This document shows, one piece after another, positions 9,810 to 49,000 of a stretch of 64,000 nt of DNA. Numbering within the stretch: position 1 is the stretch's first letter; each line of letters begins with the position of its first letter. The notes below the pieces were generated by a model, which saw only the letters and a list, made by a program, of their open reading frames with translations, made no database searches and was not told the origin of the DNA. The DNA is from Convolutriloba macropyga (Eukaryota). The translations under genes were made by a program, and so were the position numbers. The stretch covers positions 16,926,001 through 16,990,000 of the forward strand of contig NC_134476.1 in NCBI RefSeq assembly GCF_964194025.1. Direction: 5' to 3'.

Positions 9810-10698
9810 GTTCGAGAAAAAAATGCAAAAATACGTAAGATAAGCGGTGAAAATTTAGTTTTTTCACTGCAAATTTCGTACGTAATTTAGCGGTGAAATG
9901 CGGTGAATGCGGTGAAATTATGTAAGTTCACCGCTAGACTAAGCGGTGGTCTTACAACAGTTCACCACAATTCACCGCTAAAATATGTATTTTCACCGCC
10001 CTTACAAGGGTCCGAACCTGTCACATCCTGCATGTCATCCATTTCTTCTTCCACTGCGCCATCTCTCACTAAATTCAATTAATTTTTGTTTGAATATAAA
10101 TCGAATTCACACTACTTTCTGCAAAACATGTGCGGTGAATTTTTGTAAGATTTGCACTTTTTAGCGGTGAAATTACATTTTTTAGCGGTGAAATGTGGTG
10201 AATTTCTGTAAGTTCACCGCTTACTCTAGTGGTGAAATTACGTAATTCACCGCTTAGAAAAAAATGTCAAAAAGACGTAAGATTAAGGGGTAGTTTTAGT
10301 GGGAAGGCAAATCTAACAATTCCTCTCACATTCACCATTAAATTCACTGCATTCTTTGCTGATCTCAAACATCTGTAACAATTTTTTCTAAGCGGTGAAT
10401 TTATGTATGTTCACAACTATGTTGAGCGGTGAGTTTATGTAATTTCACCGCATTCACCGCTTCTCTTACATAAGTTGGACCTTTTTTTCGAAGCGGTGAA
10501 TTTTTGTAATTTCACCGCTAAATTCAGCGGTGAAATTATGTAATTTCAGCGCTACGAGGCGATAAAGTTTTTTCACCGCATTCACCGCCTGATTTATGTA
10601 ATGTCACCGCATTCACCGCTTATCTTACAAAAAATTTCCGCATTAACCGCTTATCTTACATAATTTTGCGTTGAATGGCGGTGACACCTCGACCCGGG
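9810..10698 (-). mobile_element. CMC/EnSpm-like non-autonomous element (CCCGGGTCGAG TIR) with GCGGTGAA subterminal repeats and tRNA-like core
   Basis: Right end CACCTCGACCCGGG and dozens of GCGGTGAA/TTCACCGC motifs. The left end is degenerate. Homologous to 46832-47458. Confidence 0.75.
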
Positions 10699-12453
10699 TT
10701 TGGTTGACAGTTAAGTCAAACATGCAGATGAGCTCGGGTCGGAACATCATGTGCGAACGCACATTAACGAGCCGCCTTGTTTTCCTCAAAATTATACGTC
10801 GATGTGTATCTTAAAGTAACTTTCAATTGCTGTATGCCTCATACAAAAATGAAATAATTTTGAACTGCACTGTAGTTTATAAAAAAAATTGCTACCTCTC
10901 TATAGACGTCTTAATAATTATGAGTTAACTTTTTATTTTCATTTTTCCATAGTAAATTTTCATTCTAACTCAATAAAAAAGTTTCCAACATTGTAGGAAT
11001 ATTCTTTTACCTTCATTATTTTAAATATATATGTATGATGAGGTTTTTCTCTTACATGATCGTTTTGAATTGCATCTATTGCATACTCTTGTCTTCTTTC
11101 CATTTTTCCATTTTGGATTCCAAATTAAAAAAAAAAGAAGTTAGTGGCTTTTGGCAACAGAATGTCAACTTTTATATTAACAATAAATTCTACTTTTTTA
11201 CAATTTATCCTTTTTGTACTAGCAAGCACAACAAACATGGCATTGAAAAAACAATACTCTGTCTTTATTGTTTATCGTCACTAATAGTTTAGAACAAAAA
11301 CCATATTTAATCTTTTCCAAACCATAAACCAAAAATTCTGTTATCTTTTTCTTTATACTCATTTACACGTGTCCTCTTTCTGCAGCAACATTATCAATCT
11401 TAAATTGAATATCTCTTACACTCTTATTTCCAACAAAAGTGTATTTATGTACAAAACCTCTTTGATCTTCACCAGTACTTGAAAGTAACTTACCAAATAG
11501 ATTTGAAAATCTGAAAGAAAAAGTTCAATCTCTTTATTTTTTTCTCACTACAAATCTCAATTTTGTAGAGCTTTTATAAGCGACCATACGACAATGTTCA
11601 AATCTAATGATAGCACAAGTTGGATATATAGTACCAGCATCATCTGATACTACAATTTCATTTTCGAAAATAGAATCGTTTAAATTTATTTGCGTCTCAT
11701 TTTGTTCTGGAAAAGGCTAATGTTAGTGTATTACTGTAATCATGATTTTATGATGTTTCGATGAGATTTTTGACATCCCGTTCTTGTGTATATCGTTTTT
11801 AGAATTAAAAAAATATCTATAGGTCTAAGAATATAATTGAAAATTTATCTAAGTTGAATTTGATTTCTTATAAGGAAACGATTAATGATTGTACGAAAAT
11901 TTAAGGTAATGATTAATTAAAGTACAAGTTCATTCAGTGTAAAATTTTATTTTCGTAACTGAATAATTGAAGCTATAAACCACATCAAATTTTACGCTAA
12001 CTATAGAAGTGAAAGTTACTGTTCAGGTTAGTTTATGTCTGACTACTTCAGTTCCTAAATTAAATTCAGTTCATCACCATAAAAAGTTATTTATTCTACC
12101 GTGTTACTCTTTAACAATGGATCTTTTACTCCAGAGCTAATATTGAAGAGAACGAGTTTTTTTGTTTATTGATAAAGTCAACTGTCTTATCTACAGTGTG
12201 TTCTCCTTTTTCATTGTTCTGTTTCTCACACTTTTACGATTTCCCCGTTGAGTTATCAGCATCAAAGCCTACTACTCCACCAACATCCATTTTACATTAA
12301 ATTGTATTATTAGAATCTTCTTTTATTATGCTACCATCAGTTTTATCTTTTATTCTGTCCCCTCTATCTGATAACTCCATATTATCTTGGTATTAATTTC
12401 GTTCTCATTAAAGCAATATCATTTTCACCAGTAAAAGCATTTCGTAATCGCTA

Positions 12454-13119
12454 CCCGGGTCGAGATGTCAGCGCCGTTTCAGCGCATTATTTTGTAAGAA
12501 GTGCACTGAATATGCTAAAATTATGTAAGAAATGAGTTGAATGCGCTGATATGCGCTGAAATGAGCTGAAACGCGCTGATTTTTCAAAATTTTTAGCGCA
12601 AAAATCTTACATAATTTTGCGCTGAAATGCGCTGAAACTTTGTAAGAAATGTATTCAAAATTCAGCGCATTTCTTAAAATTATTTAGTGGATTTAAACGC
12701 TTTTTGACAACGATTCCTCAATTTCGAACCATTTAGTTTTCCTTATATAACGTTTATCTTTTTCTTAAAAAATGCGCTGAAAATATGTAAGAAATTCGCT
12801 GAATTTTCAGCGCATTTCTTACATAATTTCAGCGCATTTTTTCCTAAACTGTCTATTAATATAAAATTAAATTAAATAGGAAGAAGTTCAGGAATCCTTG
12901 GCGAACTGGATTGGGTGAAGGCTGCGGCACGGGAGAGCAGAGTTCGATTCTCAGTGCCAGCTATTTTTTGAAAACTCAGTGGTTTTCAGTGCGTTTTTTG
13001 CAAAGCTTCAGTGCATTTCAGCACATTTCAGCGCATTTTTAAGTAAGGTTTTTGAGTTGAACTTTTTCAAAAATCAGCGCATTTCAGCGCATTTCTTACA
13101 TAAATTTTCTCGACCCGGG
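12454..13119 (+). mobile_element. CMC/EnSpm-like non-autonomous element (GCGCTGAA subfamily) with tRNA-like core
   Basis: Perfect TIR CCCGGGTCGAGA / TCTCGACCCGGG flanked by TA on both sides, with arrays of GCGCTGAA/TTCAGCGC. Confidence 0.85.
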
Positions 13120-15529: not shown

Positions 15530-18500
15530 CTAGCCTTTTTGCTTGTACCCAATCTCTGAATACTTTGTATTAATCTGGTTTTTTTAAGATAAAAGATCAA
15601 GCACTGCAGCTTTAGGAAATTTCTTTCTAAAGAAGATCTATTGGGGTAATATTTATAGTTTTGGCAGAACAATATCTTAGAACAATTGTTTTACCAATTC
15701 TGGTTTTCAAGGGAAGGATGTATGTTAGAGGAAATAGAGTTTGGTCAAAAGTCATTGTTGATGAAATAGGAAGACTATTTTAAATAGTGAAAATGCAAAA
15801 GTTTTTCTAAAACTGATTTGACTTACCGTTAGTTAAATTCTAGTGCAGTTACTTTATGTTAATCCTGATTTAAACCTACGTAGTTCACTTTCAGATTATT
15901 AGACGAACTTGCAGGAATTTTATACGAGCAGGGAGTGTAGGATAAGAGCTTGCAATTGTTTGGTAGAATAATATTTTAGGAAGAAGTAGTGTAGAAATCC
16001 GTAGTTTACATTAAAATTGGCATAAGCAGATACTGCGAGTAAATTAAATAATTTAAATCAAGTTACTTAAGTTAGTTTTGGTATTTGAGTTTGTAATAAA
16101 AAGCTTTACTTCATCAGCGCCACTAGGAGGCGTTTTGTACCTTTTTGCTTGTCCCCAAACTCTGAAAACATTGAATTAATCTGCTTTTTTTAGACAAGTG
16201 ATCAAGCACTGTAGCTTCAGAAAAATGTTTTTTAAAGATGATCTTTTGGGGAAAAATTCGTAATTTTGGCAGATCTGTTTCTTAGATAATTTGTTTTTCT
16301 ACCAAACCTGGGTTTCAATGGGAGGATGTATGTCAGAGGCAACAGAGTTTGATCAAAAGCCATTGTTGATGAATTAGGAAGACTATGTTATATTGCAAAA
16401 ATGCAAAAAAATTTAAAAACTATTTTATTTTATCATAAGTTAAATTTTAGTGCAGCTAGTTTATATTAATTCGGAGCTAGACCTACGTAGTTTTTTCTCA
16501 TATTTTTAGACAAACTGGCTGGATTTTTTGACTAGCCGGGAGTATAGGATTAGAGCTTGCAATTATTTGGGACAATCATAATCTAGGAAGGAGTAGTGTA
16601 GAAATCCGTAGTTTACATTAAAATTGGCATAAGCAGATACTGCGAGTAAATTAAATAATTTAAATCAAGTTACTTAAGTTAATTTGGGTATTTGAGTTTG
16701 TAATAAAAAAGCTTTACATCAACAGCGCCACTGGGAGGCGTTTTGTATCTTTTTGCCTGTCCCCAAACTCTGAAAACATTGAATTAATCTGCTTTGTTTA
16801 GACAGGTGATCAAGCACTGTAGCTTCAGAAAAATGTTTTTTTTAAAGGTGATCTTTTGGGGAAAAATTCGTAATTTTGGCAGATCTGTTTCTTAAATAAT
16901 TTGTTTTTCTACCAAACCTGGGTTTCAATGGGAGGATGTATGTCAGAGGCAACAGAGTTTGATCAAAGACCATTGTTGATGAATTAGGAAGACTATGTTA
17001 TATTGCAAAAAATGCAAAAAAAATTAAAAACTATTTTATTTTATCATAAGTTAAATTTTAGTGCAGCTAATTTATATTAATTCGGAGCTAGACCTACGTA
17101 GTTCTTTCTCATATTTTTAGACAAACTGGCTAGATTTTTTGACTAGCCGGGAGTATAGTATAAGAGCTTGCAATTATTTGGGACAATAATAATCCAGGAA
17201 GGAGTAGTGTAGAAATCCGTAGTTTACATTAAAATTGGCATTAGCAGATACTGCGAGTAAATTAAATAATTTAAATCAAGTTACTTAAGTTAGTTTCGGT
17301 ATTTGAGTTTGTAATAAAAAAGCTTTACTTCAACAGCGCCACTGGGAGGCGTTTTGTACCTTTTTGCTTGTCCCCAAACTCTGAAAACATTGAATTAATC
17401 TGGTTTGTTTAGACAACTGATCAAGCACTGTAGCTTCAGAAAAATGTTTTTGTAAAAATCATCTTTTGGGGAAAAATTTGTAATTTTGGCAGATCTGTTT
17501 CTTAGATAATTTGTTTTTTTTTACCAAACCTGTGTTTCAAAGGAAAGATGTATGTCAAAGGCAACAGAGTTTGATCAAAAGCCATTGTTGATGGAATAGG
17601 AAGACTATGTTATATTGCAAAAATGCAAAAAAAATTTAAAAACTATTTTATTTTATCATCAGTTAAATTTTAGTGCAGCTAATTTTTATTAATTCGGAGC
17701 TAGACCTACGTAGTTTTTTCTCATATTTTTAGACAAACTGCCTGGATTTTTCGACTAGCCAGGAGTATAGGATAAGAGCTTGCAATTATTTGGGACAATA
17801 ATAATCTGGGAAGGAGTAGTGTAGAAATCCGTAGTTTACATTAAAATTGGCATAAGCAGATACTGCGAGTAAATTAAATAATTTAAATCAGGTTACTTAA
17901 GTTAGTTTGGGTATTTGAGTTTGTAATAAAAAAGCTTTACTTCAAAAGCGCCACTGGGAGGCGTTTTGTATCTTTTTGCTTGTCCCCAAACTCTGAAAAC
18001 ATTGAATTAATCTGCTTTGTTTAGACAAGTGATCAAGCACTGTAGCTTCAGAAAAATGTTTTTTTAAAGGTGATCTTTTGGGGAAAAATTCGTAATTTTG
18101 GCAGATCTGTTTCTTAAATAATTTGTTTTTCTACCAAACCTGGGTTTCAATGGGAGGATGTATGTCAGAGGCAACAGAGTTTGATCAAAGACCATTGTTG
18201 ATGAATTAGGAAGACTATGTTATATTGCAAAAAATGCAAAAAAAATTAAAAACTACTTTATTTTATCATAAGTTAAATTTTAGTGCAGCTAATTTATATT
18301 AATTCGGAGCTAGACCTACGTAGTTCTTTCTCATATTTTTAGACAAACTGGCTAGATTTTTTGACTAGCCGGGAGTATAGTATAAGAGCTTGCAATTATT
18401 TGGGACAATAATAATCCAGGAAGGAGTAGTGTAGAAATCCGTAGATTACATTAAAATTGGCATAAGCAGATACTGCGAGTAAATTAAATAATTTAAATCA

Positions 18501-20003
18501 AGTTACTTAAGTTAGTTTCGGTATTTGAGTTTGTAATAAAAAAGCTTTACTTCGACAGCGCCACTGGGAGGCGTTTTGTACCTTTTTGCTTGTCCCCAAA
18601 CTCTGAAAACATTGAATTAATCTGGTTTGTTTAGACAACTGATCAAGCACTGTAGCTTCAGAAAAATGTTTTTGTAAAGATCATCTTTTGGGGAAAAATT
18701 TGTAATTTTGGCAGATCTGTTTCTTAGATAATTTGTTTTTTTTTACCAAACCTGTGTTTCAAAGGAAAGATGTATGTCAAAGGCAACAGAGTTTGATCAA
18801 AAGCCATTGTTGATGAAATAGGAAGACTATGTTATATTGCAAAAATGCAAAAAAAATTTAAAAACTATTTTAGTTTACCATCAGTTAAATTTTAGTGTAG
18901 CTAATTTTTATTAATTCGGAGCTAGACCTACGTAGTTTTTTCTCATATTTTTAGACAAACTGGCTGGATTTTTCGACTAGCCAGGAGTATAGGATAAGAG
19001 CTTGCAATTATTTGGGACAATAATTATCTGGGAAGGAGTAGTGTAGAAATCCGTAGTTTACATTAAAATTGGCATAAGCAGATACTGCGAGTAAATTAAA
19101 TAATTTAAATCAGGTTACTTAAGTTAGTTTGGGTATTTGAGTTTGTAATAAAAGGTTTTTGTTTCAACGGCTCCACTGAGGGGCCTTTTGTACATACTTT
19201 TTTGTTTGTACCCAAGTCATGAATATATTGTATTAATCTGATTTATTTCGACAAGTGATCAAGAACTGTGGCTTTAGAAATTATAATTCTAAAGAAGATC
19301 ATTCGGGTAAATGTTTGCAGTTTTGGCAGATCAGTTTCTTAGAACACTTGTTTTATTACCAATTCTGGGTTTCAAGGGGCAATAGAGTTTGAAACAAAAG
19401 TCATTGTTGATGAATAAGGAAGACTATGTTAAATTGTGAAAATGGAAAAAGAATCCTAAAAACTGGTGAAACAACTAAATTGGTGTAAACAGATACTGCC
19501 AGTGATTTTAATATTTTAAATCAACTTACTTAAGTTATTCTAGGTGTTTGAGATGTAATAAAAGTTCCTCGTTTCAACGGCACCACTGAGGGGCGTTTTG
19601 TACTTACTTTTTTGTTTGTACCCAAGTCATGAATATATTGTATTAATCTGATTTATTACGACAAAGTATCAAGAACCGTAGCTTTAGAATTTTTGTTTCT
19701 AAAGAAGATCATTCGGGTAAATACTTGTTGTTTTGGCAGATCAGTTTCTTAAAACATTTGTTTTTTTACCAATTCTCGGTTTCAAGGGGCAATAGAGTTT
19801 GAAACAAAAGTCATTGTTGATGAATAAGGAAGACTATGTTAAATTGTGAAAATGGAAAAAGGTTTTTAAAAACTGGCGAAACAATGAAATTGGTGTAAAC
19901 AGATACTGCCAGTGATTTTAATATTTTAAATCAACTTACTTAAGTTAGTCTAGGTGTTTGAGATGTATTAAAAGTTCTTCGTTTCAACGGCGCCACTGAG
20001 GGG
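15530..20003. repeat. tandem array (satellite): six ~610-bp units plus two ~410-bp deleted units
   Basis: AGTAGTGTAGAAATCCGTAG recurs at ~15985, 16592, 17203, 17815, 18425 and 19037. Shorter units lie at ~19150-19560 and ~19560-19975. Confidence 0.95.
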
Positions 20004-22022
20004 AGTTGAGTGGCTTTTCTTGAATAAACAACCTAATGAACAACAAAAATGAGATGGCTTTTTGTATTGGTTACTGAATAAAATTGTATTAGTGCATCAG
20101 GCCAGAATCCAAATCCACTAGAGAACAAACTTTAATTTTGAAGAGAAATAAATATGTAGAAGAGAGGTCGAATTTTAAATTGAACTGAAGGAATATCGTT
20201 TTCTCCAGAGATAATTTAAACTATTAGTTTTATGAAAATAATAATGGGGAGGCTGACTATCAATCCCGGCACTACGCGGGGAGTTATGTTTTATTAAACG
20301 GACACTTACCAAATTGTAATGGCATGTATATCCGAAGGTCTCCTCGAGCTGGTATAGTTTCCGAGCCATTCTGACGGTCCACACCCGAGTTATTGGAGTT
20401 TTTTGAAGTATTTAGGTACAAAACGACAACCTCAATAAAAACTGTGAACAAAAATTTTTTCAAAACGAATAAGTTTAACGTATTGTTGAATCTAGTACAA
20501 AGAAAAGAATTTTAAAGACAGTTTTGAGTTGTTTAATGCAAATAAAATTTGAGTATTTTTAAGTGAGGACTATTTGCACTTGTTATCGAATTACTATTGT
20601 TGAAGTCGGAATGACCTGAAATTTTTAAGATAGACCAATTTCGACGCCGGAAAACCGAATTGGATTTAAAGTTTGACACCTCACCAACCTCCATGGAACT
20701 ACTGCACGCCGGTGCTGCGGGATGTAAAATTTGAGTGCGAAAACGGAAAAAGGGTGATTTTGAGTGGCCGCATGACTTTGAAATGGTAAAAATTTGATAA
20801 CCTGAGACAAATAGTGACCAAAAATAGCCACCCCAGTTATTTTTGGCGAACTCAGATTTTTCGGGTTTGGGAACCCACGACTCCCAAACAATTTTCCAAA
20901 ACGCAAACGTTTCTAAACAAACAATGCTAGAGCAACAATTTTAGGCCTGCATTTAGTTGGTACCATGCACTTTATAAATTTCTTTACCCAAAGTTATTTT
21001 GATTCCTATAACACGAGATATGATATTGTGAAATTGATTCTCTACGGAACACCCAGGAGACAAGTGCGCATGCACTGCTCGTGTTCTTTTACGAGCTAGG
21101 TTGTGGTGACAAATTAGTGTGTAGGTGCACTTGTGGATTGTTTTTTTGCGACAGTGGTTATTTTTACCAACTTGATCCCTTATTTTTTCGGATGACGCCT
21201 AATTGATCCGTGGAGGTCAAATTTTGGGTTTTTAATAAAATTGGTCTTTCGGGATCGTATAATTACAGGGAGCTACATGAAAGGGTTTGAAAAATGGGAA
21301 TAACAACTGCTTATAGTTTACGGGTTGAGAATATTTATTTATTCAACACATGGTTTTTCAGAGAGATTGATTAGAGCTAGTTGATTTTGGTAGCAGAAAC
21401 GGAGCAATAAAAGCGTTCAAAGCATCCTTCAATGTTTACTAAGCAAACAGTAAAAAAATGACATTTGAATATTTCTGATGAAGCGGAGTGGATTTGTTCT
21501 TATGAGAGCCCAATTGTCGTTTAGTTAAGATAAGTCGAAATTTGAACAAAGGTTGGTAGCAGCTGAAAGACCGAGCATAAATTTGCAATGATTTGTTTGC
21601 ACAGCAGATAGCGCCCTCAACGGATTTAACTCAAGATCAGCGTTAGAAATGGTGAACTTTTTCATGTTAGTCGCATTCCCAATTCAACTTCGGCTTCTCT
21701 TTTTTTGACTTTTTCTCCACTTTTTGTCTTTTACACTATTTTACACTTTTGGGGATTTATATGCAGTAATTTGCTTCAAAATCAGCAGTATTACCGGTGA
21801 CATTTTTGTTTTCACGTCTTAAGCACTGAGAAAAAATCATCGATACCAATACGAAGCTGTGAAAACAAAAATATCATTGTTGGTTACCGCAAAAGTCAGC
21901 GCTAAAAAATTTGCTTTATTTTTTCCCTATAAATTGTCGTAAAGTTTACAATTTTTATGGCATTAAGCGCTAAAAATCCAAATTCTTCTAACCTTTCATG
22001 ACATTCATTTTAATTCTTACAA

Positions 22023-23499: not shown

Positions 23500-26400
23500 T
23501 TTAGTTGTGAAACTGAATCCACTGTTATGAATTTTCCCGCTGTTCAATACTCTCTTGAAGACCTCGTGCTTTAGTTGCTTTTGCCCCTCATGTGTTATTC
23601 CCTTCGCACTTTTCTTCTGACACTCTGAAAGAACAATACAATCAATCCATTTTCTCTTTTAATCCATGTGCTTTCCCAGCCCAGGTTCGCGTGTTCCTGT
23701 TATATTAAAAAGACACCTTCAGGAATTCGGTTATTTTCAAAACTGGAATTTGTTTTAATAAAATATGTGTTTACACATACGCTTCGCTGGCATTGAACAA
23801 ATTTTGGGTTTCAAGTCACAGAACTCTTCCATTGCCAAACCTGCTAGTTCGTCTTTGAATTTGAGAGTTACTATATGATTTTCTGTGTTGTACAAGGCGT
23901 TATCAGAAGCGTAATTGGAAAAGTCGAATTATGTGTTGAATTCCGCTCGTGCCAGCTCCTCTTAGAAGTAATCACAATCAACAGCATAGGTAAGTGAGGC
24001 CGTATCAGTGTAAAAAAAGTTCACACCTGAACCAATGTTTCATATTGTCGTATCGAAATCGAAACATGAATGGTTTAGAAAGATCCAGAATTGAAGCAGC
24101 AACTATTCTAGGTTTCACCCAGTATATTTTCGTTTTTCTTGTTGTCATGACTGCCATGTTTTCATCTAAAGTTTTATAGGATTTCATGTTAAATTTATCT
24201 GTGTGGTTGAGGAGAGCTCGTTCATCTCGGACGACGAAAGCGTTAACTCGGTTTCGCATGCATTCACAACACTTTCCCAAAGAAGCGTTGTTCATGAGTT
24301 TGAAGAAGTTTTCAGCAATTTTGTTGGTTGCTGCTTGCCGCAATCTTGTGTTCAGTTCGATACACTTCGCCATCCACTTTGATTGTCTGAATTTGAGCAC
24401 CTTGTGCAGTTTTGAGACTTCAGGGCGGTCGCGTTTATGAATCTTTATCGATACATAGTGTAGGGTATTATCCTTCTTATCATAGAGTATTTGAAGCATT
24501 TTGTTGCACATTGAAACTTTTGGGAGATGATATTCTTCCAAAAGGTCCAACTGGTAACTACTCAACCACATGCTGTCCACAGGTTCTCGAGCAGGTGCCA
24601 TTGGAAAATCTTGGTGAGCATCGTGAATTGAGTCGGGGTACTCCAAGTCGACGCAGACGATATATCCAAATTCATCGTCTCCCGGAGTTTGCAAAATTTG
24701 TTCAATCGTCACCTCTGTGTCCGTCTTGAAGGAATTGAGTTGCAAGCAGAAATCTTTCATGATCCCACCATAGATGTTGTTAGCATCTATGGTGAGGGCA
24801 TATGTTGATTTCTGTGTGTCATCAAAACTTTCCAGTTATTTGTTGTATGGCGAGAAAAGTCTTTTTGTGTGACATACCCCTCTCAACAATTCTTCTGCTA
24901 GATCAAGATGGTTGCGATCTGTGAGGAGCTCCAGGTCGGGGTGACATAACTCCAGAAAGGCATCGCCCTCTAAGTGTGGTGCTGATAGATATTGAGCACA
25001 GTTCAAGCTGTACGAGTGCAGACAGACAGTTCGTAGCCGCTCAAACCAACAGGCAAGCTGGAGGATGTCGACTGTCAAGTACAGATCGTGATAGTCACCC
25101 ATGTTTTTAAAATCAAATCTTTCGAAGATGAGCTTTGCTTTTTCGTAGTCACTTTCAGTTATTGTGATTTCTCCTGATTTGAATTTTTCGACCCAGCTCT
25201 TCTTAGGCGGCAATTTTTTAGCTTGAACTTTCTAAAGGTGTCCATGTAGGAGTAGGGGTAGAATCCTCTAACCTGCAGTAGTTTCACACCATTTTGGTCA
25301 CATTCTTCAAAATGGTTATCGAGTATATCGAAACTGTCTTCAGGCAAAGATTGAACTAGTTTATCAAAACGAGACTGTAAGAACCGAAGAAAATCGATAA
25401 AGCGAAGTTCTTCTTATGGGTATGACGTTTTGATTTTTCTTAACAATATCTTTGATCCAAACTTTAAAGCTAAAACTGATGTAATTCTCATCAGTTTGAG
25501 GAATTATTGAAAATTTATTATTAGGGTTGCATTGATGAAGACTCTCTACAACATGATGCAAGTCATATCCTGACAAGTTATGTGCAATTATGGGAAAAAA
25601 GCTCGGTGTTCTGTGCTGCAGGTTGCACTTTGAGTGAGCCCAGCCAAGAAACTGATTTGAGAAATGGCAGTGATCCAAGACTTTTTTGTTGTCCGTAGAA
25701 AAAGTAGTTTCACATATCCAACACTGAGTCGCCATCTCTTTTGCTTGTCCAACAGCTCCTGTGAAGTACCTCTGTTTTTGCTTTGTCTCGTAGATATCTT
25801 TTGCTAGTGTCTCCATTTGCTTTATAAAAACTTGCATGCAATCTTCACCCCTGTACAGATGGAAAAATTTCAAATTTGGACTTCCATGTGAAATGGCTAA
25901 ACAATAGTAACCGCTCGGAACGTGTTTATCGAAGACACGAGTTTTTGACGTCTGCGGATTTTGTTGAGCTGATGATACCGGTACAATGATTGACTCTAGT
26001 TCAAAATAGACAACCAGTGGGAGAGCTGTTATTGCTTGAAATTTTTTGAAAGCGAGACTGTTGCTGTCTGGCTCAGGTAGCAGGACTCGACAAGTTTCGA
26101 ATTGATGGCAAGCTTTTTCGTGTTTTTGAAGTGTTTAGCTGCTCGAGCAAACATGAAAGCAGTTTTGACAGATTTTCACCTGTGCATCAATCTGCCGCCC
26201 TTACACTTTTCTAACTAAGTTTACCAGGTCTGTTATTAGCACGTAGTGATTACGTTCACCTTCAGTTATCAGTAGGAGATCAACGACAAAATCAGAGTCG
26301 TGCTTTGAATTGCGGAAAGAATACAAACCTTTCTTTTCGTATCGAAAAATGTTCACTTTTACTTCATTACGTCTTTCAAACGCGCTTATTTTGTCAATCG

Positions 26401-33147: not shown

Positions 33148-33576
33148 TCATCTTTTACTTTGGCGGAGAAGTCCGACCGACTTCTTTTGGGTACTCTTTT
33201 TCCTGAAATTGTGGTTTTGCGTTGTTTTCTTCGATCCAGTGCGTAAGCGTTTTGATTTCCTTCTCATTCTTCTTTTTCCTCTCATTCGGAGGGCTAAAGA
33301 TCCACCTGTTTGTTTTTTCACTGAGTTTGATATTGTGCTCTTTAGAGCCGGCTTTGGTGATTTCTTTTTACCGATAACATCCATCAAATCAGGGACGCTT
33401 TGCAGCAACAGTTCTATTCTGATGCGCGTAGCTGCTGTCAAAACAAACTTCCGAGCAAGTGGCAGTGCAACACGTCCCATACCGCTAGCTAATGCTCCAA
33501 AACCATAACCACTTTGCATAAAGTGACAGTAAAAGTGAGGCAATGATGATGCTTGATTTGCGTAGTAGGAGTCCAC
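33148..33576 (-). CDS. basic core/PZ-like Maverick protein
   Basis: YYANQA..LPHF...QSGYGFGALASGMGRVALPL motif with an Arg/Lys-rich tail, in the usual position between minor and major capsid genes. Confidence 0.75.
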   Translation of the reverse strand: MDSYYANQASSLPHFYCHFMQSGYGFGALASGMGRVALPLARKFVLTAATRIRIELLLQSVPDLMDVIGKKKSPKPALKSTISNSVKKQTGGSLALRMRGKRRMRRKSKRLRTGSKKTTQNHNFRKKSTQKKSVGLLRQSKR

Positions 33577-33599
33577 TTAACCACCAAATTCTTTAATTG

Positions 33600-34240
33600 G
33601 TAATGTTAAAATAGCTTTGTTAAAATAAATATGTTAATACTGATACTCAATTGTCTTTGTGTGACTAAAAATTAAATGCTTTCCAGCGCAAAGGTCTGCA
33701 GGAAAATCACCATAATAAGCTTTCGTATCATCATTTATCATTAATTGGCTTGTCCGTTTCTGGAATACATTTAAAGCTAATTGTACTATGTATTTCTTCA
33801 CTTGGAAAGATAATTCCCTCGTATTTACCAAAAATGAGTTCATATTTCCCACTGCTTTTGATTTCTTGGAAAGAAAAGTTAGGCAGATCGACTGTTCTCT
33901 TGATAGTTGCTAAAAGTTGATCACATGTATCATAAGTGCCGGCCATAACCTGTAAATTTGCTCCATTGTAGGGTCGTGAATTAACATTAGATCCAGTTGC
34001 CCGGTTTTGTGATTCCTCATATCCCCTGAGACTGAACGCAACCCAATTTCCATTAACTATGTGTTCAATTTTTGTCGGAGAAAATGTTTCACTCAGAGCA
34101 ACTCTCCAGTCTCCTGTGAGATTATTATCATCAAGAAAAAATTTTCTGAAATTTGCTAATGTGATTTCCTGGATAATGTCCATCGAAGCAGATGATATAA
34201 CGTGTACAGTGAACTCATCCTCAAAACGGTTACTAATCAT
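33600..34240 (-). pseudogene. minor capsid protein (penton, single jelly-roll), C-terminally deleted
   Basis: FTVHVISSASMD..TLANFR..LTGDWRVALSE..P and later HLIFSHTKTIEYQY. Confidence 0.85.
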
Positions 34241-34261
34241 TTTGATCTGGAGATTCTTGCA

Positions 34262-35150
34262 CTAGTTGTAATTCTGGCTGATTAAACTTGCCCTGGATAA
34301 TTTCTTTATTAGAATCAATAACAGAATATGTAGGTGGATTAAGCGTCGGAATACCGGCATTTTCATAAGCTTCGTCAGCGAACGATTACTTGTATCCTTT
34401 TTGGAATGCTTCCCCCTTTTTACGATTCGAACAAAGTCACCAGAGTAAAGTTTTGGTTTTTGACTGGGAAGTGTCTGCACATTTAATGATACAAAGCTTG
34501 GTACATCTTTTTGGTAACTTTGCTAGGAGCAAGTTTGGTGATACGATTAACACGAGAGTTAATAGTTTTACGAATTGATCCAAATTGTTAATATAAGAAA
34601 ATGTCCACTTTCCTCTAAATATCTGTTAATAATATTTTTAAGTGACCTGATGTTCCTCTCCGCAAATGCAAACTTCTTTTCGCTTAAAGAACTATACAAA
34701 TGAATTACTCGTTTGTTGCAGTGTTTTGAAAGCCCCCAAAAACTCCGTGTCATCATCTACCCAAACTTATTGTGGTTGCTTGTGCTTGATCATGTTTTGG
34801 AAGGATTTTGTTGTTTCTGTTGCGTATTTTGTTTTCACCGGTTCAACACGTAGATACCTCGAGAGGCAATCAACTGCTACGAGCAAAAAACTAACATCAC
34901 GATTGTTAATTGCAAGCTTGTCAATCTAGCTAAATCTAAAGACTATATTTCATTCAGATCGTTGACGATTGCTTTTAATCGAAGAAAATTCAACCGCCGA
35001 GCACAATATTTTGTGAAGGATGGTTTTGTTTCCAATTACAATTTGACTTTTGTCATTGGTAATTTGCTCAAATCTTGTAATTGCTTTGTACTTCCGAATG
35101 ATGCTGGACCTTTAGTATAGAGTCTATCCAGTAGTTGCACATCTTTAATA
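34262..35150 (-). pseudogene. retroviral-like (rve) integrase
   Basis: LYTKGPASFGS, LLVAVDCLSRYLRVEP, WVDDDTEF, AFAERNIRSLKNII, PKLYSGDFVRI. Confidence 0.92.
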
Positions 35151-36225
35151 ATGAGACAATTTTTTTTCCTTTTGTCTCCTGCTCTGTCTTTTTGTTGGTT
35201 TGATTTTTTGGTTTTGCTGGTTTTGATCCGGAGTCTTTACTTTGACTTCCACTGCTCCGTTCGCTTTTTTGTTGTTCAGGTTTTCCTTGAATGGTTCAAT
35301 TTACTCTTCCTTCTCCTCTTGGCTGTAAACTTTTTTGAGGTATTTTTTAGCATGAGTGTTGGATACTAAATGTGGGGAATCCTGAGTTCATACAAAAGTT
35401 TTAAGTACACGGCTAGATCAATTTTCTCTGTCGGTTGTTGCAAATTGTACAAAAGTTGATATTTTAACTCTCATAGGTTTGTCCTCAATATGAAGGAAAC
35501 CACTCTGGTCCTCAATGGAAACTGTTTCTGAACTAAATATCTTGTTAAGGATTATTTCAGCTCTTTGTATTTCGTTTTCTTCCATTAATTTTACTTCCGA
35601 CCATATAGACTCAAAGTCTGATCGTCTTTTTTTATTACGGGCTCAATTTCGCCATCATCACGAAAGAAAGACTGTGCACTTTCACTTCCATCATCTAATT
35701 CACTTTTTAGATCAACACTACTTGATCTTCTTCTTTTGCTCTTGTTCAAGATTTTAGTTTAATTAGTTTCCTGTTCAGTCGCCTCTTAGCTCTCAAAATC
35801 TGTTGGGTTGTTTCGTTGGAGGACTGGGAATTGAGCAGCTTTCTGTTTATAATTTGGATTATCCAAAATTTCTCTCCTAGTCGGCTGTTTTGACACAAAA
35901 ATTCTTTTCCGTACCAAGACAAACTCCTCCGCATGCATTAATAATTCGTCAAGTTAGGTTAACAAGAGAGACTTTTGCTTCGGAGTAGCTGTAAATTTAT
36001 TACCAATAGCCGGCGCTTTTTCCTCAAACCTGTCTCTTTTGAGAGAAAATGTCAAATCGATGATTCGTAGTTCAAGTAAACTTTTATCCGTGGTCATGTT
36101 TCCAATCATAACATTCAGAAAGCATTCACAGAGAAATTTTTTAATTTTATTTTATGAATTTTTGATGAATTTTTTAGCATGCTTTCCGGCATCTCGAGCA
36201 TTGACTTCAGAATACATATATCTTT
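35150..36225 (-). pseudogene. two conserved Maverick hypothetical ORFs between ATPase and integrase
   Basis: KFLCECFLNVMIGNM (~36100-36145) matches the recurrent Maverick CECxLNxLxGN motif. A second fragmented ORF contains LYNLQQP. Confidence 0.6.
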
Positions 36226-36239
36226 CTCTCTCATTTCTG

Positions 36240-36889
36240 AGGTGGGTAGTTACAGCTTTGGAATATGGCAGATGGAAAATTTTTGGCCTCGGTGGTACAA
36301 TATTTGAACAATAACGTAGTGAGTAGATTGTTTTTGGGTCTAAATCAATCAATAAGTGACCGAATGATTGTTTTGTCGCGAGATCATCGCTGTCTTTTGA
36401 AATGTTTGTATTATTATTATTTGTATAAAGAGTTGTTTTCCAATATAACTTATCTGCTGTATATCTCTGTGAGTTGTGAACAAAATGATGTGTGTTGTGT
36501 TGAGATCAATTGTTCGAGACCATTTACTCTGTTGAAACAAATTATGCTTAACATAGATAACAAGGATTTTTGTGGCGTCCAGCTGTTGCAAGATTTGAAA
36601 ACTCCTTATCATTGAAAATTTCTGCGCAAGAATTGTCAAAGACGTTTAAACAGTTTTCCAACTGCGAAATGAAATCAAATCCCGGAAATTTGGTAAAATA
36701 AGGGTTCAAGTTACGCTTCATCGTTTGAAATTTTGGTTGATCATGTTGATAGAAATAGTATATTGACTTGAAATTAGAGAAAAACGTATTCTTAGGAAGC
36801 ATTTGAAAAATAATTTTGGTCTTTCCTCGACCTGAAGGACCACAGATTGCCATCAAAAGAATATCACTTATTGATATTATTTTATTCAT
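36240..36889 (-). pseudogene. A32-like DNA packaging ATPase
   Basis: Walker A GPSGRGKT, Walker B-like VFDN, AGRHKN, KHNLFQQSKWSRTIDLNTTHIILF, MIDLDPKT..LRYCSNI. Confidence 0.92.
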
Positions 36890-37170
36890 AACTTAGGATT
36901 TGGAAGTGCGTATCCAATTGTGCAGGATAGCAATGAAAACCAAAAAGATGACTACTCACAATCGAGGAGGAAAAAAAACTATTTTGATCAGTGAAACTAC
37001 AATAAGAAAAAAGGAAACTTGTGTAAAATAAATTACCTCAGAGCGCTGTAGTCTAGAGTTGTAAAATCTCCAAGATCGTCTCTCTTTGTTTTGATCATCA
37101 AAAACCAAATCAGTGATTCCTGCTTCTCCACCCCAGCGCAATCTAATTGATCTTCCGATTGACTCATTTT
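36886..37170 (-). pseudogene. small two-TM Maverick membrane protein
   Basis: WRF..RSEVIYFTQV followed by a hydrophobic stretch, then (frameshifted) FWFSLLSCTIGYALPNP, a motif seen upstream of Maverick ATPases. Confidence 0.65.
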
Positions 37171-37625
37171 GAAAGCAAAAGATTCTCAAAAATTAATTCA
37201 ATTCAAATTTGTGTAATTTGATAGCTTATTATTTAGTTAGTTCATCAACCATAAAAAATTTTTTAAGTTATAAATTCAGCGTTTATATCTTCCTTCTTAT
37301 ATGTTACTTTATAGTTCGCTTGGAGTCACTGCCATAGTGGACAAATGATTCCACCTTCCCTTCTCTGACTGCCTCTTCGATTTCATCGGGGAGACTCTCA
37401 TCGTCCAGGGGTACTGGTTCTGGCACTGGATACTTGGGCGCAGGTAAAAGGGTTAGTTTCAGTCTTTTCAGTTTCTATTGTAAAGACATGATACATTTGA
37501 AAGTACCCCATCAGTGAAAGATATTTCAGTAGTTTCAATTTCAGCAGTTTTACAAAGTATTTACTGCTTCCTTAGTACAATTTGATCACGAGAATCAATA
37601 TTTTCTTCTTTCAGAAACCAGGTTA

Positions 37626-38219
37626 TCACTTGCAATGCAACTGCATACTGTCAAATTTGGAGATAAATGCACTTGAATAACTGCAGGAGTTACTTTCTCC
37701 ACACGACCACTCATTAGTTGTTACTGTTATCGAATAAAAGTATACATATGCCTTTCTCTTTGCGCAAAGCTTTTTCCTTTGTTTGAATGGTAGTATAGTT
37801 GAATGAAGTGAACAAGTCAAGTGATCTCCTGGAGTGAATATTTCTTCAACTTTTGGACATAGCAATTTTTGTAAATTTGTTATGACTTTTTGAAGGAGTT
37901 TCTGCAGTGTCTTCGTCTTCTCCTTCCCCTTTGCGTAGAATTTAGCAGTAGAAAATCGGATTTTGATTGTTATAATATTTTGTGATAAAAAACAAGTATG
38001 GTTAGCTGCCATTGCCCACGAAATACCATGCAAACGCTTCGTAACCCACTGATGCGATTTTCCCTCACTCGGGGACAGCGAGTTGAAGGAAATTGGAGGA
38101 AGACAAAGAACCGTGTCTGAGTAATTGTTTGAACAAAAAGATAACTCTTTTATAATAAATCCACTCTTTTTGTGTCGAAAACTTTCAAAGAATATAACAA
38201 CAATCGCTGGGCTCAACAT
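37626..38219 (-). CDS. DEDD exonuclease-like Maverick accessory protein (degenerate)
   Basis: VIFFESFR..FIIKELS, WVTKRLHGISW, FYAKGKEK, and a C-terminal Cys/His cluster. Confidence 0.6.
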   Translation of the reverse strand: MLSPAIVVIFFESFRHKKSGFIIKELSFCSNNYSDTVLCLPPISFNSLSPSEGKSHQWVTKRLHGISWAMAANHTCFLSQNIITIKIRFSTAKFYAKGKEKTKTLQKLLQKVITNLQKLLCPKVEEIFTPGDHLTCSLHSTILPFKQRKKLCAKRKAYVYFYSITVTTNEWSCGESNSCSYSSAFISKFDSMQLHCK

Positions 38220-38560
38220 TCCAAAAAACTGAATGGTTTACGTTTGAACGTTTTTACGAACATGCAGATGAATAGACCAGTCAGGTGACCAACGCAAGCG
38301 TTTGTGATTGGACAAGGCAAAACGGAAGAGTATCGTGGACCCTTTTGGCTATAACCTGCGATAAATCCGGAGGCATCATGCAGAATTGCATGTAAGCGAA
38401 GCACTTTAAATGATTTCCAATAAGTGCCCAATGAAGAGTTATCTATTCCAATGATACCATCATAAGGCCTCAACTTTAGTGCAATTTCTAGGTTAAAATC
38501 GGGGTCCAAGTGCAAGCAGGTTGCCAATAAGTAAATCTACCTTCGCGATAATTGTTGTCA
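38213..38560 (-). CDS. Maverick accessory protein with HAILHDA motif (possible PLA2-like)
   Basis: LRLHAILHDASG..KGPRY..CVGHLTGL. Confidence 0.45.
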
Positions 38561-43017: not shown

Positions 43018-46000
43018 ATGATGGCTACAGCAAATTGTGAAACGGAAGATTTGACGAAATTTAATCCACCAATTAGCCCGAATTGTGAAGTGTTTTCGGC
43101 TGAGTGGGACGCGATGGGTGTTTTCTTCTACCAGGCATACAATGACCAGATAGCCGACTATGCAGTTGAACATCAGACGTTGGGAGGAGAGCAATATAAA
43201 ACAGGTACATGTCACAAATAGCCGATGTACCTTTCGCACAAAAAGGGTTAGATAAAAAAATGAATGTTGTAGCTTTTTGGTACATCATGATCCCTAAAAT
43301 GATTATATCTGTACTCCAAAACCTGTCGAAAAAGGCAAACTATTTTTGCGGGGTAAGTTAACAATTGTAAGCATTTTTTGCTCAAAACATTTGCTCTTTC
43401 GAGACGAGAACAAACGTTCACAAAAACAAACGTTTGCAAATGGTAGCCGGACAGTTGTCTTGTTGTCTCAAATAGCAAACAAATTTTGAGCTACAGAATT
43501 TGTCTACCATTGTTAACTAGGTAACTGGAATACATCCATTGAAATTCTTACACAGAAACGAACAAATTCCGTTACCTGGTTCGGACCTCTTATAAGAGGT
43601 CCGAACCAGGTAACAAAATTTGTTCGTTTCTGTGTAAGAATTTCAATGGATGTATTCCAGTTACCTAGTTAACAATGGTAGACAAATCCTCCTATTACAG
43701 CCAATTCTTCTTCCACTGCACAACCTTTAATTTCTTTCTTATTTTTCTCTTATGAATTTAAATAAGATTTACTCAACTTTATACGCAAAATATATGGGTT
43801 GAGTATTTTGTAATATTAGCGATTTCTAGCAGTGCATTTTGTTTCACCGCTTAAGCCGTGAAGAAGAACGTTTCACCGCTCCCAACTGAAAGCCTTGAAT
43901 GTAAAAATTTCATTGTTTCAAAACACAAATATCGAGAAAATTTACGGCAACAAGATTTGCTGCATTTTTAACCGTTGAATTCACGTAAGATGTGCGGGTT
44001 TTAGTGGTAGCAGCTAACACCATCAGACAAATGGGACAATCCAGACAGAAGCGATACCGAAATAGAAATGAACAAGACCACGGCAAAAAAAGGACGCAAA
44101 CGACAGGCGAATCAGTGATCCGCAGAGCAAATTGCGTCTTGTTAGGCTTGAGGGACAGGGCAGACCAACACCAAGGACGGGAGAATTGGTGCAGCTAAAG
44201 CTCGCCAAAAAATACCGGCACGCAAAATATCCAAGAAAGACCTTCAAGGACTATGACCTTCGAAGTGTTGGAGCCCGGGAAAACAGTCCTAAAAGAAGCT
44301 GACTACACCTTCATCGTCAAAAAAAAACCAGGTAAATGTACATGCACGGTGACAAAGGGTAAAATAACGAAACACGCCTCACATCTTTGACGCAAAATGA
44401 AAAAGGTACAAAAACTTTACCCACAGTAGACAACCAGATGATATTAGTGGGATCTCATCGGTGAAATCAATTGCTCTCACGCGCCCTAACAGTTCCTATG
44501 CCGGCAAAATGACTTCGTTCCCACCGACTTTGCCATCCAAAAATACAAAGGCCCACAAAAACCCGATATCCACGACTTCCATCATTCCAGTAGATTCAAC
44601 AAGCGGCAAGCGTTTAAGACAAGAGCCTGCGACCGACAAATCCACTGTCTTATGCCCTTCCCAAATAGCAGTCCCGAATAAAAAGCGAGCCGACAAGCAT
44701 CAAACTGTTACCATAGCGCAGTGCAGCACATATGCGTATGAGCCTGTTGCCTCTGGTTCATCAATCGTCATAAGAATACAGTCAATCACGGAGCGGAACC
44801 GGCCCTGGGAAGTCATTTTAACGTCGCTGTAATCACGCCCCAAATAACTCGGGTAGAGCAGCCGTTCATCTCGTTGAACATACCGCCCTCGAAGCGGAAA
44901 TGCAATCCGATTCAGATAACTTGTAAAATAGTCAAAACTCGTAGAACAATTAACACTTACAATACTAGTAGCTAACCAGCACATATTTGTTTATTTTTCT
45001 GTCAGTATTCCAACTTCTTAACAAAAACTCACCAAAGTTTTCCGTGAGCAAAGATTTTCGTTTGTAACGGGGGATATGTGGTACACAGGTACCATTGTAC
45101 CACTAATTTTGATTATTCGGTCACTATTTTATCCTTTTTTTACATATCTCCATTTATAGCTGTAGTTCAATTTGCCTCTACTCATAATTAGTTTATATCT
45201 GTGGTTTTCATTTTGATTACTTATTCATTTTTTATGATTTCTGCTTTTAGATTTGCGGTTCATGCTCTTGTTCATTCCCCGTTGTAAACATATATATCTG
45301 TTCATAACCTTGTTGTCTGCTGCCAAGTTACTCGGTCAGCCCAGAACTCTTCTTGTAACAAGTTGTAACTCATTTTTTCAAAAAATATTTTCTATTTACT
45401 AAGTGACTACAGCTTTCCAACAATTTAGCCTATTCGCCCCGCGATGAGCAGTAATCCTACATCCGAGAATCTCCGCGACTCAGCACAGTGAAAATTTAGT
45501 ATTTGCAATTCAAATAGGTCTGGTTTGGTTTGCAATTCAGCTCTCCATCCTAAAAACAGTGATTCGCACCGCAAATTATTAAAATTCTCTTTCGTATAAA
45601 AAATGTGTACGACAGTAGACGTTTTATTTTTAATGCTTTCACGGCATTGAGCATTCTTGTTTAATATATTGGAATTAAAACAAACAGAACAGAACAATTT
45701 TTAAACCTCTATTTTCTTCCACAAAGGTCTACCGATTTTATAATTCCAAAGTATTCTGAAAGTTAAGGCAAAAAAGTAAAGAGTAAGGTATCTCGACAAG
45801 AAACAGTTAATTGACAACAAACTATACAATGAGAAGAAATGATCTTTTTTGAATGAAGGGTCCCAAAGTTCTATAATTCCTGAATGTTTGAGTTTAATTT
45901 AGAACTTTACTGAAGAGATAAGCAGATAAGTAGCGGAACTTCTAAAATCAGCAAAATAGAAAAAAACATCGCAAGGTCAATTTTTTTCTCAGCATGAGGG

Positions 46001-49000
46001 AGATGTCCTATCATTGGTTTTTCAAAGACATTAACATTTTGAAATGTCAATGAATTTAGCTTGTGTAATGTATAGTAGCTGCAGCCGAATAAATTTTGTG
46101 CTAGTGGCATTTTTCAGATTTTTCAGTTTGTTTGTCTGATAAACCAATATGTCCAATTAATGTATAGGTTCAGTGTTTCCCACATTTAGTTTGCCGATGC
46201 GATTAGTTGAAGTTGTTTTTCATTATTGATTGGCTCATCAATCAAAAAAATCCCATATGAGTCTTTCGTTTTTTTTGCATCACTTCTAGCTCGCTCTAGA
46301 TTAGTCTTCAAACGCTTTGAACTGCTTCGGTTTGTGTTAATTGAAAGGCGAAAAATTACCATTATTTAGGATGTAAAAAAATTTTACTTTAGACAGATTA
46401 AGATTAATACTTATCGGTGTTGAAATAAAATCAAATCGTGCACGTTTTTTCAATACGTCCGAAAATATGAATTTGGCTATACATGATAATATGAAATTTT
46501 CTCGATTCGAATAATTAGAGCAGTGAAAAAGTTACAAAAAGGGTGCTTCTGTAAACGAGTTACGTAAAAGCGATTAATTGCCTAAGAGCGCCTACTATGT
46601 TATTTTCAAACGCGTTTATAAGCGAATATTTTGGGTTATTTTACGAAAAGTAGTCACAATTGCCAGATCACTGCATTAAGTCACGGCGAGTTGGAAAAAA
46701 GTTGGTTGAGCCATGGTGCAAAAAGTGTCCAATCGCTCAGAAAATTTTTTGTCGATGATCAACTTTAGATATTGGCCATCTAAAACAGAATAGACTTGTT
46801 GAGATTTATAGAGATGCAGAAAATTGAGTTACCCGGATCGAGATTTTGTCAAAAAATAATGTAAGATTAGCGGTGAATAGCGGGGAAAAACCTTTATTCA
46901 CCGCAAAGCGCCCGCATCTTTTGGCGTTGAATGCGCTGAAAGGTGTGAATTTTTGTAAGAATTGCGTTAAATTTTGCGGTGAAATTTTTTTTTTTCACCG
47001 CATTCACCGGAATTCTTACAAAAAAGAAACTGCCGTAAAAGGGTGCGAACCTCTAACTCATGCGTGTCACCAACTTCGTAATCCACTGCGCCATCTGTCA
47101 CTAACTTCACTGATATTTCCTGTGAATATAAGATAAGCGTTGAAATTAGCGCGGTGAATATTTGTAAGATTTGCAATTTTAGCGGTGAAAATTTTTTTTC
47201 ACCGCATTCTGCTGTTAGCGATGAAAGTTTTTTTTCACCACATTCTGCTGGTAGCGGTGATTATTTTTTTACCGCATCCTGCTTGTAGCGGTGAAAAGTT
47301 TTCTTTCACCGCTTAAGCGCTGAAAACAAAAATTTCACCGCTTAAAAATTTCTTTTCACCGCATTCATCGCATTGAACGCAAATCTTACACTTTTACTCA
47401 AATTCACCGCAAATCTTACATCTTTTAGCGATTTTTAACGGTGACACCTCAACCCGGGTATGATTCGCTGGTAATCAGGTTAATATACCACGTGATTACC
47501 CTTGTAATTAAAAATTTACAAATTTGCAAGAATCTTTCAAGCTATCTTGCAAGAGAATACATAATTCTTGCAAGATTCTATGCCAAGATTTAATACAAAA
47601 AAATTATAAAATATCACTTCAGTTTTTAGTTACGCACAGCAAATAAATCATTGCATGTTTATATTTTGTTTTCAAGATTTTAAAATTTTATTAAAAATTT
47701 ACCTACCTTGATTTTCCTGAAAAGTAAAAGTTGTTCATCAGTTGGTTTATGTTTCAATATTGTTTGGAACCTTGATTTTGACAGCGTTTAGCAGAAAAAT
47801 TGACACAGATTCTGTCGCTTCGCTAGCATCATGCACTGATCTTCGTTTGAGAAGTGGCTAAGATTAGATAATGATATTATGATTTACAACCTCAGCAAAC
47901 TTTTAACATGAAATTAAGTGACTGTGTGTGACTTTGTTGTTAGTAACAACCAATTTCAACAACATTAGTTCATTGTTTTTTTTTTTAAATAAACGTCCTT
48001 TTCTTTGTCAGTCACAAAGTTATCATCTAAGGCTTTTTTTAGTTTAGTTTGACTTGTTTATTATCTAGATCAAAGAGAACAGGCGTGATTTTGTATCGTT
48101 TCAATTTTTTTGTCAATTTGATGATAATCTTTTTTTTTATTTTTGCCCAGCCAGTTTGAGTTGATATCCCAGGTGTTGATTTGATCGCTTTTTCTGCTTT
48201 CCTTTTCTTCAAAGCATGAGTTTATTGCAAAAAAGCCTGTCTGGATCAAATAAATGTGACCAAAGAAAGTTGCCTTAATAATAGTTGCGTGCGACCCAAT
48301 TCTCGTGTAATGATTAATCTCCAAATCAGTGTTACAGCAATTTACGCCCACACAAAACTGATCTACTTTTTAAAAATCCCCGGATCTATTCTGTTTCGGC
48401 CCCCAGTGTTTTTTATGACCCCCAGTTACAAATTATATGTTGTTATATAGCGCGTTACTATGTAAGAAATTAGCACGTGCGCCTGGGGGTCATAAAAAAT
48501 GTATGCTCACTAAGCTTTTGCGAAACAGAATAGATCCAAATTCCCCGAATAACTTTTCAAGAATTCTTCAATATCTCACTCTCTCTTACATCATTTGATC
48601 CCATTGACGATTAAACCCCACATTACTCCATAAAAAAAATCAAACATAACCGATGGAAAAAGTCGGCATATCGGGGGTGAGTTAGATAAAAGAATACGTT
48701 TTTTTTGTGTTATTTATGTATTTGGTTTTTAAACGGAGGAAATCGTCGGCATGTTCGATTTCAAACGACATGAGATCGTGAGAAAGTGACCAATGTATTT
48801 GTTTCTATGATCAAATTGAATCTCAGTAAATGTGAATTGAATTAATCAATTGAATTCCCGTCAAAGTTCATGGCTGACTTACCGAAGATTTCGTACACTT
48901 CGAACCGAACATCAGGACGTTTCTTACCGTTTTTGAAAATAAAAATACTGCGATGCTTTTCCACGTTCTAAGACCGAACATGCTGGAAAAATCTCCTACG

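Follow-up and report, generated by a model that had tools for sequence, protein, structure and literature searches.

A tRNA-type RNA polymerase III promoter cassette in non-coding DNA transposons of Convolutriloba macropyga, and its possible role in their mobility

We analyzed a 64,000-nucleotide stretch of the Convolutriloba macropyga genome (NC_134476.1, positions 16,926,001 to 16,990,000 of the forward strand; hereafter 'the window'), which is part of a 1.18-Gb assembly with a G+C content of ~34%. The window contains three non-coding transposable elements (copies 1–3), each of which carries an A box and a B box arranged as in the internal RNA polymerase III (Pol III) promoter of a tRNA gene. 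An initial annotation of this DNA had described the three as a single CCCGGG-ended family bounded by terminal inverted repeats (TIRs). The six box sequences lie where it had placed them, with spacers of 32, 31, and 31 bp when read directly from the window; the core has the same orientation relative to the asymmetric ends in all three elements, and the arm motifs differ between subfamilies, as it had claimed. The copies belong instead to three separate families of about 894, 676, and 632 bp, and CCCGGG is intact at both ends of the plus-strand copy 2, with each of the minus-strand copies departing from it at one end (Table 1). A loose A/B-box pattern, formulated once the motifs had been seen, matched four times in the window; 100 Markov resamples averaged 0.05 matches, with no more than 1 in any of them. 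An exact pattern matched 918 times in the genome, compared with 0 matches for its reversed control. Cassette-bearing elements are real, occur well above chance, and are richer than first described – a function for the cassette is attractive but unproven.

Genome searches with families 1–3 returned between 1409 and 3667 candidates each, and the best 40 from each search were nearly all full length, with 86–94% identity. The 11-bp inverted end CCCGGGTCGAG has 7992 exact occurrences in the genome, compared with 76 for a control sequence. Two recognisable ends were present in 86 of 90 loci, and 81 of these 86 are flanked by a 2-bp duplication that draws on 13 different dinucleotides. A Tc1/mariner assignment, which implies a TA-specific target, was rejected: TA accounts for 16 of the 81 duplications. 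Near their ends the families also have arrays in which a short motif is repeated in both orientations, a feature of CACTA/EnSpm transposons. Passages of a study of animal CACTA elements describe CCC ends and 2-bp repeats (PMC1636069). Judged by these sequence features, the window elements are likely non-autonomous cut-and-paste transposons of the animal CACTA/EnSpm (CMC) type.

The genome encodes many long reading frames matching Transposase_21, DUF1258, and SET. Many intact CACTA/EnSpm transposase frames of ~950–1070 amino acids were seen (loci L221–L240 and L346–L385), with an N-terminal SET domain match in the three that were scanned. A CCCGGG end lies downstream of the transposase frame in ~17 of 60 loci, and in 10 of these ends all but one of the first 10 bases agree with the short elements. 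By the Repbase rule, non-autonomous ends match those of the coding element at positions 1–11 with at most one mismatch, and the target-site duplications are equal in length (PMC4455052). The best coding ends have 2 mismatches to the short elements in 11 positions, 1 of them within the first 10, and a family represented by locus L243 is one mismatch from both; the 5′ ends of the coding elements were not reached, even 11 kb upstream in five extended loci. The arm motif of the coding elements is unlike that of the short elements, and two transposase loci adjoin a short-element end. Following 20 one-ended elements for 10 kb yielded no transposase match. No empty insertion site was present among the minority of contig joints listed from four DNA runs covering all 30 bins of the stretches compared. 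We regard the superfamily as well supported and likely correct, with the exact coding partner not identified among the loci sampled.

The cassette consists, in order, of a TATA-like motif, an A box, a 30–33 bp spacer, a B box, and a T run. We compared nine cassette types (six consensuses and three single copies), which are not independent because most share ancestry. In eight of the nine, TATA or TTTAAA begins 37 or 39 bp before the A box. A TATA-type motif at that offset is found in 2 of 56 distinct host tRNA upstream sequences, which represent few tRNA types, and in 7% of random 16-bp stretches. Spacers in host tRNA genes span 32–33 bp, close to the range in the cassettes, and a run of at least four Ts follows the B box by 12–27 bp in all nine types. 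The cassette lies 370–640 bp inward from the element end in families 1–4, and it stays while arm lengths differ several-fold between subfamilies. The box pair is imperfect in all three window copies: copies 1 and 3 lack the B-box counterpart of A58, the invariant A of tRNA B boxes, and copy 2 is altered at two positions of its A box and at one of its B box.

Table 1. Coordinates of the three window elements and their promoter cassettes (window positions).
Feature	Position	Strand	Remarks
Copy 1, family 1 (consensus 894 bp)	9812..10698	-	Likely non-autonomous CACTA/EnSpm-type; 10698 end intact, CCCGGG lost at 9812
Copy 1 TATA-like motif	10093..10100	-	TATA begins 37 bp ahead of A box
Copy 1 A box	10051..10061	-	Identical to family 1 consensus
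Copy 1 B box	10008..10018	-	G throughout family 1 at position of tRNA invariant A
Copy 1 first T4 past B box	9980..9983	-	Weak candidate terminator
Copy 2, family 2 (consensus 676 bp)	12454..13119	+	Two intact ends; TA duplication flanks each side
Copy 2 TATA motif	12860..12866	+	39 bp ahead of A box
Copy 2 A box	12899..12909	+	Differs from family 2 consensus at two sites
Copy 2 B box	12941..12951	+	Differs from family 2 consensus at one site
Copy 2 T6 run	12964..12969	+	Candidate Pol III terminator
Copy 3, family 3 (consensus 632 bp)	46832..47458	-	CCCGGA at one end; TA duplication flanks each side
Copy 3 TATA motif	47127..47130	-	37 bp ahead of A box
Copy 3 A box	47083..47093	-	Identical to family 3 consensus
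Copy 3 B box	47041..47051	-	Invariant A changed here, not in family 3 consensus
Copy 3 T6 run	47020..47025	-	Candidate terminator; overlaps arm motif start

Copy 1 is inserted into another high-copy repeat (9380–9811 and 10699–10783). The loss of its terminal CCCGGG is not an assembly error, because a contig from run X1 spans the 9812 junction with the same CCCGGG missing. A stretch similar to the host repeat and free of the insertion adjoins locus L202 and, by eye, suggests that a few flanking bases went with the missing end.

Among the first 30 of the 918 exact core matches, 22 are bounded by two TIR-like ends and 7 by a single one, leaving 1 without any; 20 further matches chosen for divergent spacers included 18 with a TIR-like end and 2 with none. 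Solo copies of the core in the form of a short interspersed element (SINE), a possibility raised by the initial annotation, did not turn up among the matches inspected. A TATA-anchored pattern gave 924 genome matches, some of them double through overlapping TATA starts, and among the 100 listed nearly all were, by eye, element cassettes, with a few host tRNA genes. Further carriers include a 2.9-kb family (family 5) whose copies are 98–99% identical, the L243 family with its quite different arms, and relatives of family 2. At locus L110, another CCC-type element ends directly against the first A-box base, and at L201 an A/B-box match has neither ends nor arms.

We compared cassette spacers with those of eight host tRNA genes (Thr, Ala, Cys, Lys, Arg, and Pro). 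The family 5 spacer is closest to tRNA-Thr(AGT), at 23 of 33 positions, and the family 1 spacer weakly resembles that of Ala (15 of 32; uncorrected p = 0.01); the spacers of families 2 and 3 match none of these eight genes above the level of shuffled sequences. The cassette probably derives from a tRNA gene, threonine being the best match among the types sampled. What survives of the SINE/MITE chimera of the initial annotation (MITE, miniature inverted-repeat transposable element) is a DNA element bounded by TIRs in which a tRNA-type Pol III module occupies a homologous position, with no SINE parent shown. Dispersed host tRNA-Lys genes were considered as element passengers and rejected: their flanks differ, and no such context is present in the 100 bp inspected. 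Some copies in the tRNA-Lys arrays have anticodons called as TTG and TTA. A tandem tRNA-Cys-like array (L127 and L142; G000:C15:4.79–4.83 Mb) contains several copies with a GGA (serine) anticodon on a cysteine-type body that still score >70 bits.

We examined conservation of the boxes both within and between families. Within families (29 copies per family, window copy excluded), we observed 56 box changes where 59.8 were expected. Boxes decay at the background rate after insertion, and we see no selection at this stage. Because of this decay, selection likely acts on the copies that jump rather than on behalf of the host. Between families, five consensuses have 18–21 of 22 box positions in common, compared with 12–24 of 31–33 spacer positions. 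The spacers of families 1 and 3 share 24 of 32 positions. The family 2 spacer agrees with those of the other window families at 13 of 32 and 17 of 31 positions, no closer than shuffled sequence; set against families 1, 3, and 5, it remains at shuffle level, yet 18–19 of 22 box positions and the TATA offset are held. The claim that boxes are kept and the spacer is not therefore holds for family 2 and fails for families 1 and 3.

A test in which copies were picked by their ends, using a profile with the boxes masked (29 of 32 hits, three short ones dropped), gave an identity of 0.90 for box columns and 0.76 for neighbouring columns (p = 5e-4). Boxes are thus better kept than their immediate neighbours across families, as had been anticipated, while within families they are no better kept than the rest, which goes halfway to the outcome that the initial annotation had named as refuting its reading and speaks against an insulator role on the host's side for most copies. 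Divergence from the nearest consensus (30 of 31 copies aligned) is 0.16 for non-box cassette positions, 0.11 for boxes, and 0.096 for the rest of the element. In 28 of 30 copies, the non-box cassette has diverged further than the rest of the element, and in 24 of 30 the boxes have diverged less than the non-box cassette; non-box cassette positions change ~1.4–1.7 times faster than the rest of the element. After 10 truncated or duplicate loci were dropped, private changes in the non-box cassette numbered 135, compared with 90.7 expected (98.4 when the baseline excludes arm motifs and homopolymers), and those in the boxes 28, compared with 28.3 expected. Passages of PMC6130373 describe a conserved core and divergent flanks in active tRNA genes. 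By analogy, a fast-changing patch with boxes held in place resembles such genes.

The same promoter layout is present in a second, structurally unrelated element. We had considered one core match as a SINE and rejected this identity, since the match belongs to a Helentron-like family (L321–L335 and L387–L413 in G000, e.g., C2:2751400–2751820). Members are ~360–400 bp long and non-coding, with at least 40 scored matches from 1793 candidates. They have a 15-bp subterminal inverted pair, a 14-bp 3′ hairpin, and T-rich edges, and both ends are present in 18 of the 24 copies listed. Their cassette comprises a TATA, A box, B box, and T run, laid out as in the CCC-ended elements. Across the 12 copies compared, shared variants rise to 0.24 in the DNA ahead of the A box and to 0.13 within the spacer, with values of 0.025 in the body and 0.03–0.05 in the boxes and TATA zone (the TATA zone and upstream body lay outside the search query). 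This second carrier is likely a non-autonomous, rolling-circle element of the Helentron (HINE) type, known here from its non-coding copies. The initial annotation is supported in placing the module inside a TIR-bounded DNA element; it missed the CACTA/EnSpm-type superfamily, the fixed TATA-like motif, and this second element class.

On balance, we favour the explanation that non-coding, CCC-ended elements with 2-bp target-site duplications carry a tRNA-type cassette that likely binds the Pol III machinery and likely aids their mobilisation. TFIIIC and TFIIIB would occupy the cassette in germ cells, with a predicted RNA of roughly 80–100 nt as a by-product. The result would be an open or silencing-resistant patch inside the element, through which transposase from a related coding element could reach the arms, and copies with working boxes would more often found new subfamilies. 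The cassette would be an aid to mobility, not a requirement. Replication forks pause at bound tRNA-type promoters, and pausing at a bound cassette could provide an alternative route to copy gain that is not separable from the access model here. A broader proposal, to which we give slightly less than even credence, is that DNA transposons of two unrelated mechanisms in one genome each acquired a full Pol III promoter, from TATA through A and B boxes to terminator, which element-level selection keeps as a cis-acting mobility aid: the tRNA-gene machinery would hold the element open or shield it from silencing, with no RNA intermediate needed.

We next consider how the cassette is distributed, using a sample of 58 two-ended, duplication-flanked elements chosen independently of it; 29 carry it. 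It is present in 27 of 32 elements of at least 450 bp with the arm motifs of this clade. Several observations weigh against a role in mobility, beginning with the remainder of this sample. Among short derivatives of the same clade the cassette is found in 1 of 11 (10 of 11 lack it), among elements with the same ends and other arm motifs in 0 of 4 and 1 of 8, and among unclassified elements in 0 of 3. Because of this distribution over the 58 elements, the cassette is typical of one clade and is not needed for movement by this transposase group. The abundant family 1 has spread with a consensus B box that lacks the invariant A, and none of the 60 transposase loci (many families, mostly 3′ ends) represents a coding element with these arms or the cassette. 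T runs are common in AT-rich DNA here and overlap the arm motif, making them weak evidence for a terminator. Boxes are no better kept than the arms and rest of the element (p = 0.31 for the divergences given above), with the B box alone at 0.136. The private changes may come partly from unsampled parent copies, and the excess is slight in family 1 (27 compared with 20.5–21.6), where it is weakest. The excess is also far below the 7–10 fold reported for human tRNA loci, and the C-to-T excess reported for tRNA genes is absent (C>T 3.7 compared with 7.6 per thousand), with G>T doubled instead.

Some of these observations would suit a passive cargo, which we consider unlikely. A tRNA gene or SINE head would have been captured once, its boxes appearing to be kept through a hypermutable spacer and flanks or through shielding by bound factors, with no effect on mobility. 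Consistent with this, the boxes have diverged as much as the remaining element sequence, the B box of family 1 is flawed, and cassette-free families with the same ends are multi-copy (four copies of one arm type among the 58 elements); MER6 is an earlier case of a SINE carried within a MITE (PMC6887750). Capture without effect accounts less readily for family 2, whose spacer has fallen to shuffle level against three other families while its boxes and TATA offset hold, for the recurrence of the layout in a structurally unrelated element, and for the persistence of the cassette as arm lengths vary. Also against it, 14 cassette-poor derivatives have no common deletion junction, and even the most similar pair differs at the junction, though 14 derivatives are too small a sample to exclude modest amplification.

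A second alternative, which we think improbable, makes the short Pol III RNA itself the functional product, acting as a decoy or sponge for small-RNA silencing or as an aid to the transposase. The T run in all nine cassette types and the added TATA would suit real transcription, and Cassandra retrotransposons keep a 5S promoter (PMC10853983). The spacer, which such an RNA would include, is, however, the fastest-changing part. Neither ARAGORN nor Rfam detected a tRNA or cloverleaf in the window, the predicted folds of five consensuses share no conserved structure, and T-stem pairing is broken in several families.

We give a little less weight still to a host-side function, in which dispersed copies would be under host selection as TFIIIC insulator or anchoring sites. 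A precedent comes from C. elegans, where passages of PMC6950938 report 214 extra-TFIIIC sites that have A and B boxes and lie within CeRep3 repeats close to the borders of heterochromatin, and at least 918 copies with exact boxes are present here. Against it stand the background decay of boxes within families and the count of private box changes, both of which are at expectation – though a small exapted minority would escape this test – and the damaged boxes of all three window copies.

Internal A and B boxes are a hallmark of tRNA-derived SINEs, but the notion that the elements or their cores are SINEs spreading via an RNA intermediate is very improbable and already largely refuted: the elements have inverted ends with 2-bp duplications, the promoter of families 1–4 lies so far inside the element that a transcript could not rebuild it, upstream DNA including the TATA travels with the cassette, and all but one of the first 30 core matches carry a TIR-like end.

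Other features of the window lie outside these elements. The fourth loose A/B-box match (52423–52488, minus strand) has a longer spacer, sits on the margin of a repeat whose contig depth is high, and falls outside the CCC-ended families. A near-perfect 98-bp inverted repeat without a spacer (43495–43690; 97% complementary) has one arm that in part resembles the cassettes of copies 1 and 3 on their upstream side (62% over 74 nt). Two small inverted-repeat elements were also seen: one at 48381–48516, very high-copy as judged by contig depth, and one at 61222–61332, with long C and G runs, for which Rfam gives chance-level microRNA-type scores alone. Tandem arrays occupy 15534–20025 and 28165–28901, with periods of ~610/410 bp and ~116 bp. 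A minus-strand cluster of broken reading frames spans 24005–38237, with no Pfam match in the two pieces scanned; we take these frames to resemble Polinton/Maverick genes. A minus-strand reading frame at 997–1812 matches galactosyltransferase (PF01762, E 1.3e-16) and is probably one exon.

Pol III promoters are expected in elements that copy through RNA, such as SINEs and Cassandra, and it is not obvious why an element moving as DNA would need one. If the cassette is kept for mobility, borrowing the chromatin-opening or barrier activity of tRNA genes would be a little-noticed trick. It would bear on why some non-autonomous elements out-amplify others, and it would leave hundreds to thousands of potential TFIIIC sites scattered through the genome. 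The elements form a matched series – cassette-bearing and cassette-free families with the same ends, one family whose B box is flawed, one that is very young, and a second element class – that makes the idea directly testable.

We found no paper on TIR or Helentron elements that keep A/B-box promoters in a literature search that extended neither to repeat-library entries (Repbase Reports and Dfam) nor to most subscription journals or supplements. The nearest descriptions found are those of MER6, Cassandra, and CeRep3, none of which, in the text consulted, is of a DNA-moving element that keeps a TATA-plus-A/B promoter across families. Among relatives of the carriers themselves, SmTRC1-type animal CACTA/EnSpm (CMC) elements are alike in their CCC ends, 2-bp target duplication, and repeated motifs near the ends (PMC1636069). 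They differ in that copies here are non-coding with a Pol III promoter cassette, which goes unmentioned in passages of that source (tRNA terms were not searched there). HINE/DINE-1 non-autonomous Helentrons share the subterminal inverted repeats, 3′ hairpin, T-rich boundaries, and lack of coding capacity of our second carrier in passages of PMC4067079. The family here differs in carrying a TATA, A/B boxes, and a T run, and term counts for 'tRNA' and 'polymerase III' are zero in PMC4067079 and PMC11417382.

MER6, a Tc1/mariner MITE that contains a nearly full-length V-SINE, is likewise a non-autonomous TIR element spreading tRNA-SINE-type DNA by DNA transposition, according to passages of PMC6887750. 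It differs in its SINE body and TA target, and term counts for 'promoter' and 'pol III' in that source are zero. The elements here have no SINE body or tail and a TATA at a fixed offset, and their boxes persist as the spacer drifts. The CeRep3 repeats of C. elegans are also interspersed repeats with A and B boxes, described in passages of PMC6950938 as suspected tRNA pseudogenes at sites without TATA-binding protein (TBP) and Pol III; the term count for 'transposon' in that source is zero. The elements here, known from their sequence, have a positioned TATA-like motif. Cassandra resembles them in being non-autonomous and in retaining, under selection, a Pol III promoter of host origin (PMC10853983). 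It differs as a long terminal repeat retroelement that needs its transcript and has a 5S-type promoter, whereas the elements here move as DNA, their promoter having no obvious role in making an intermediate.

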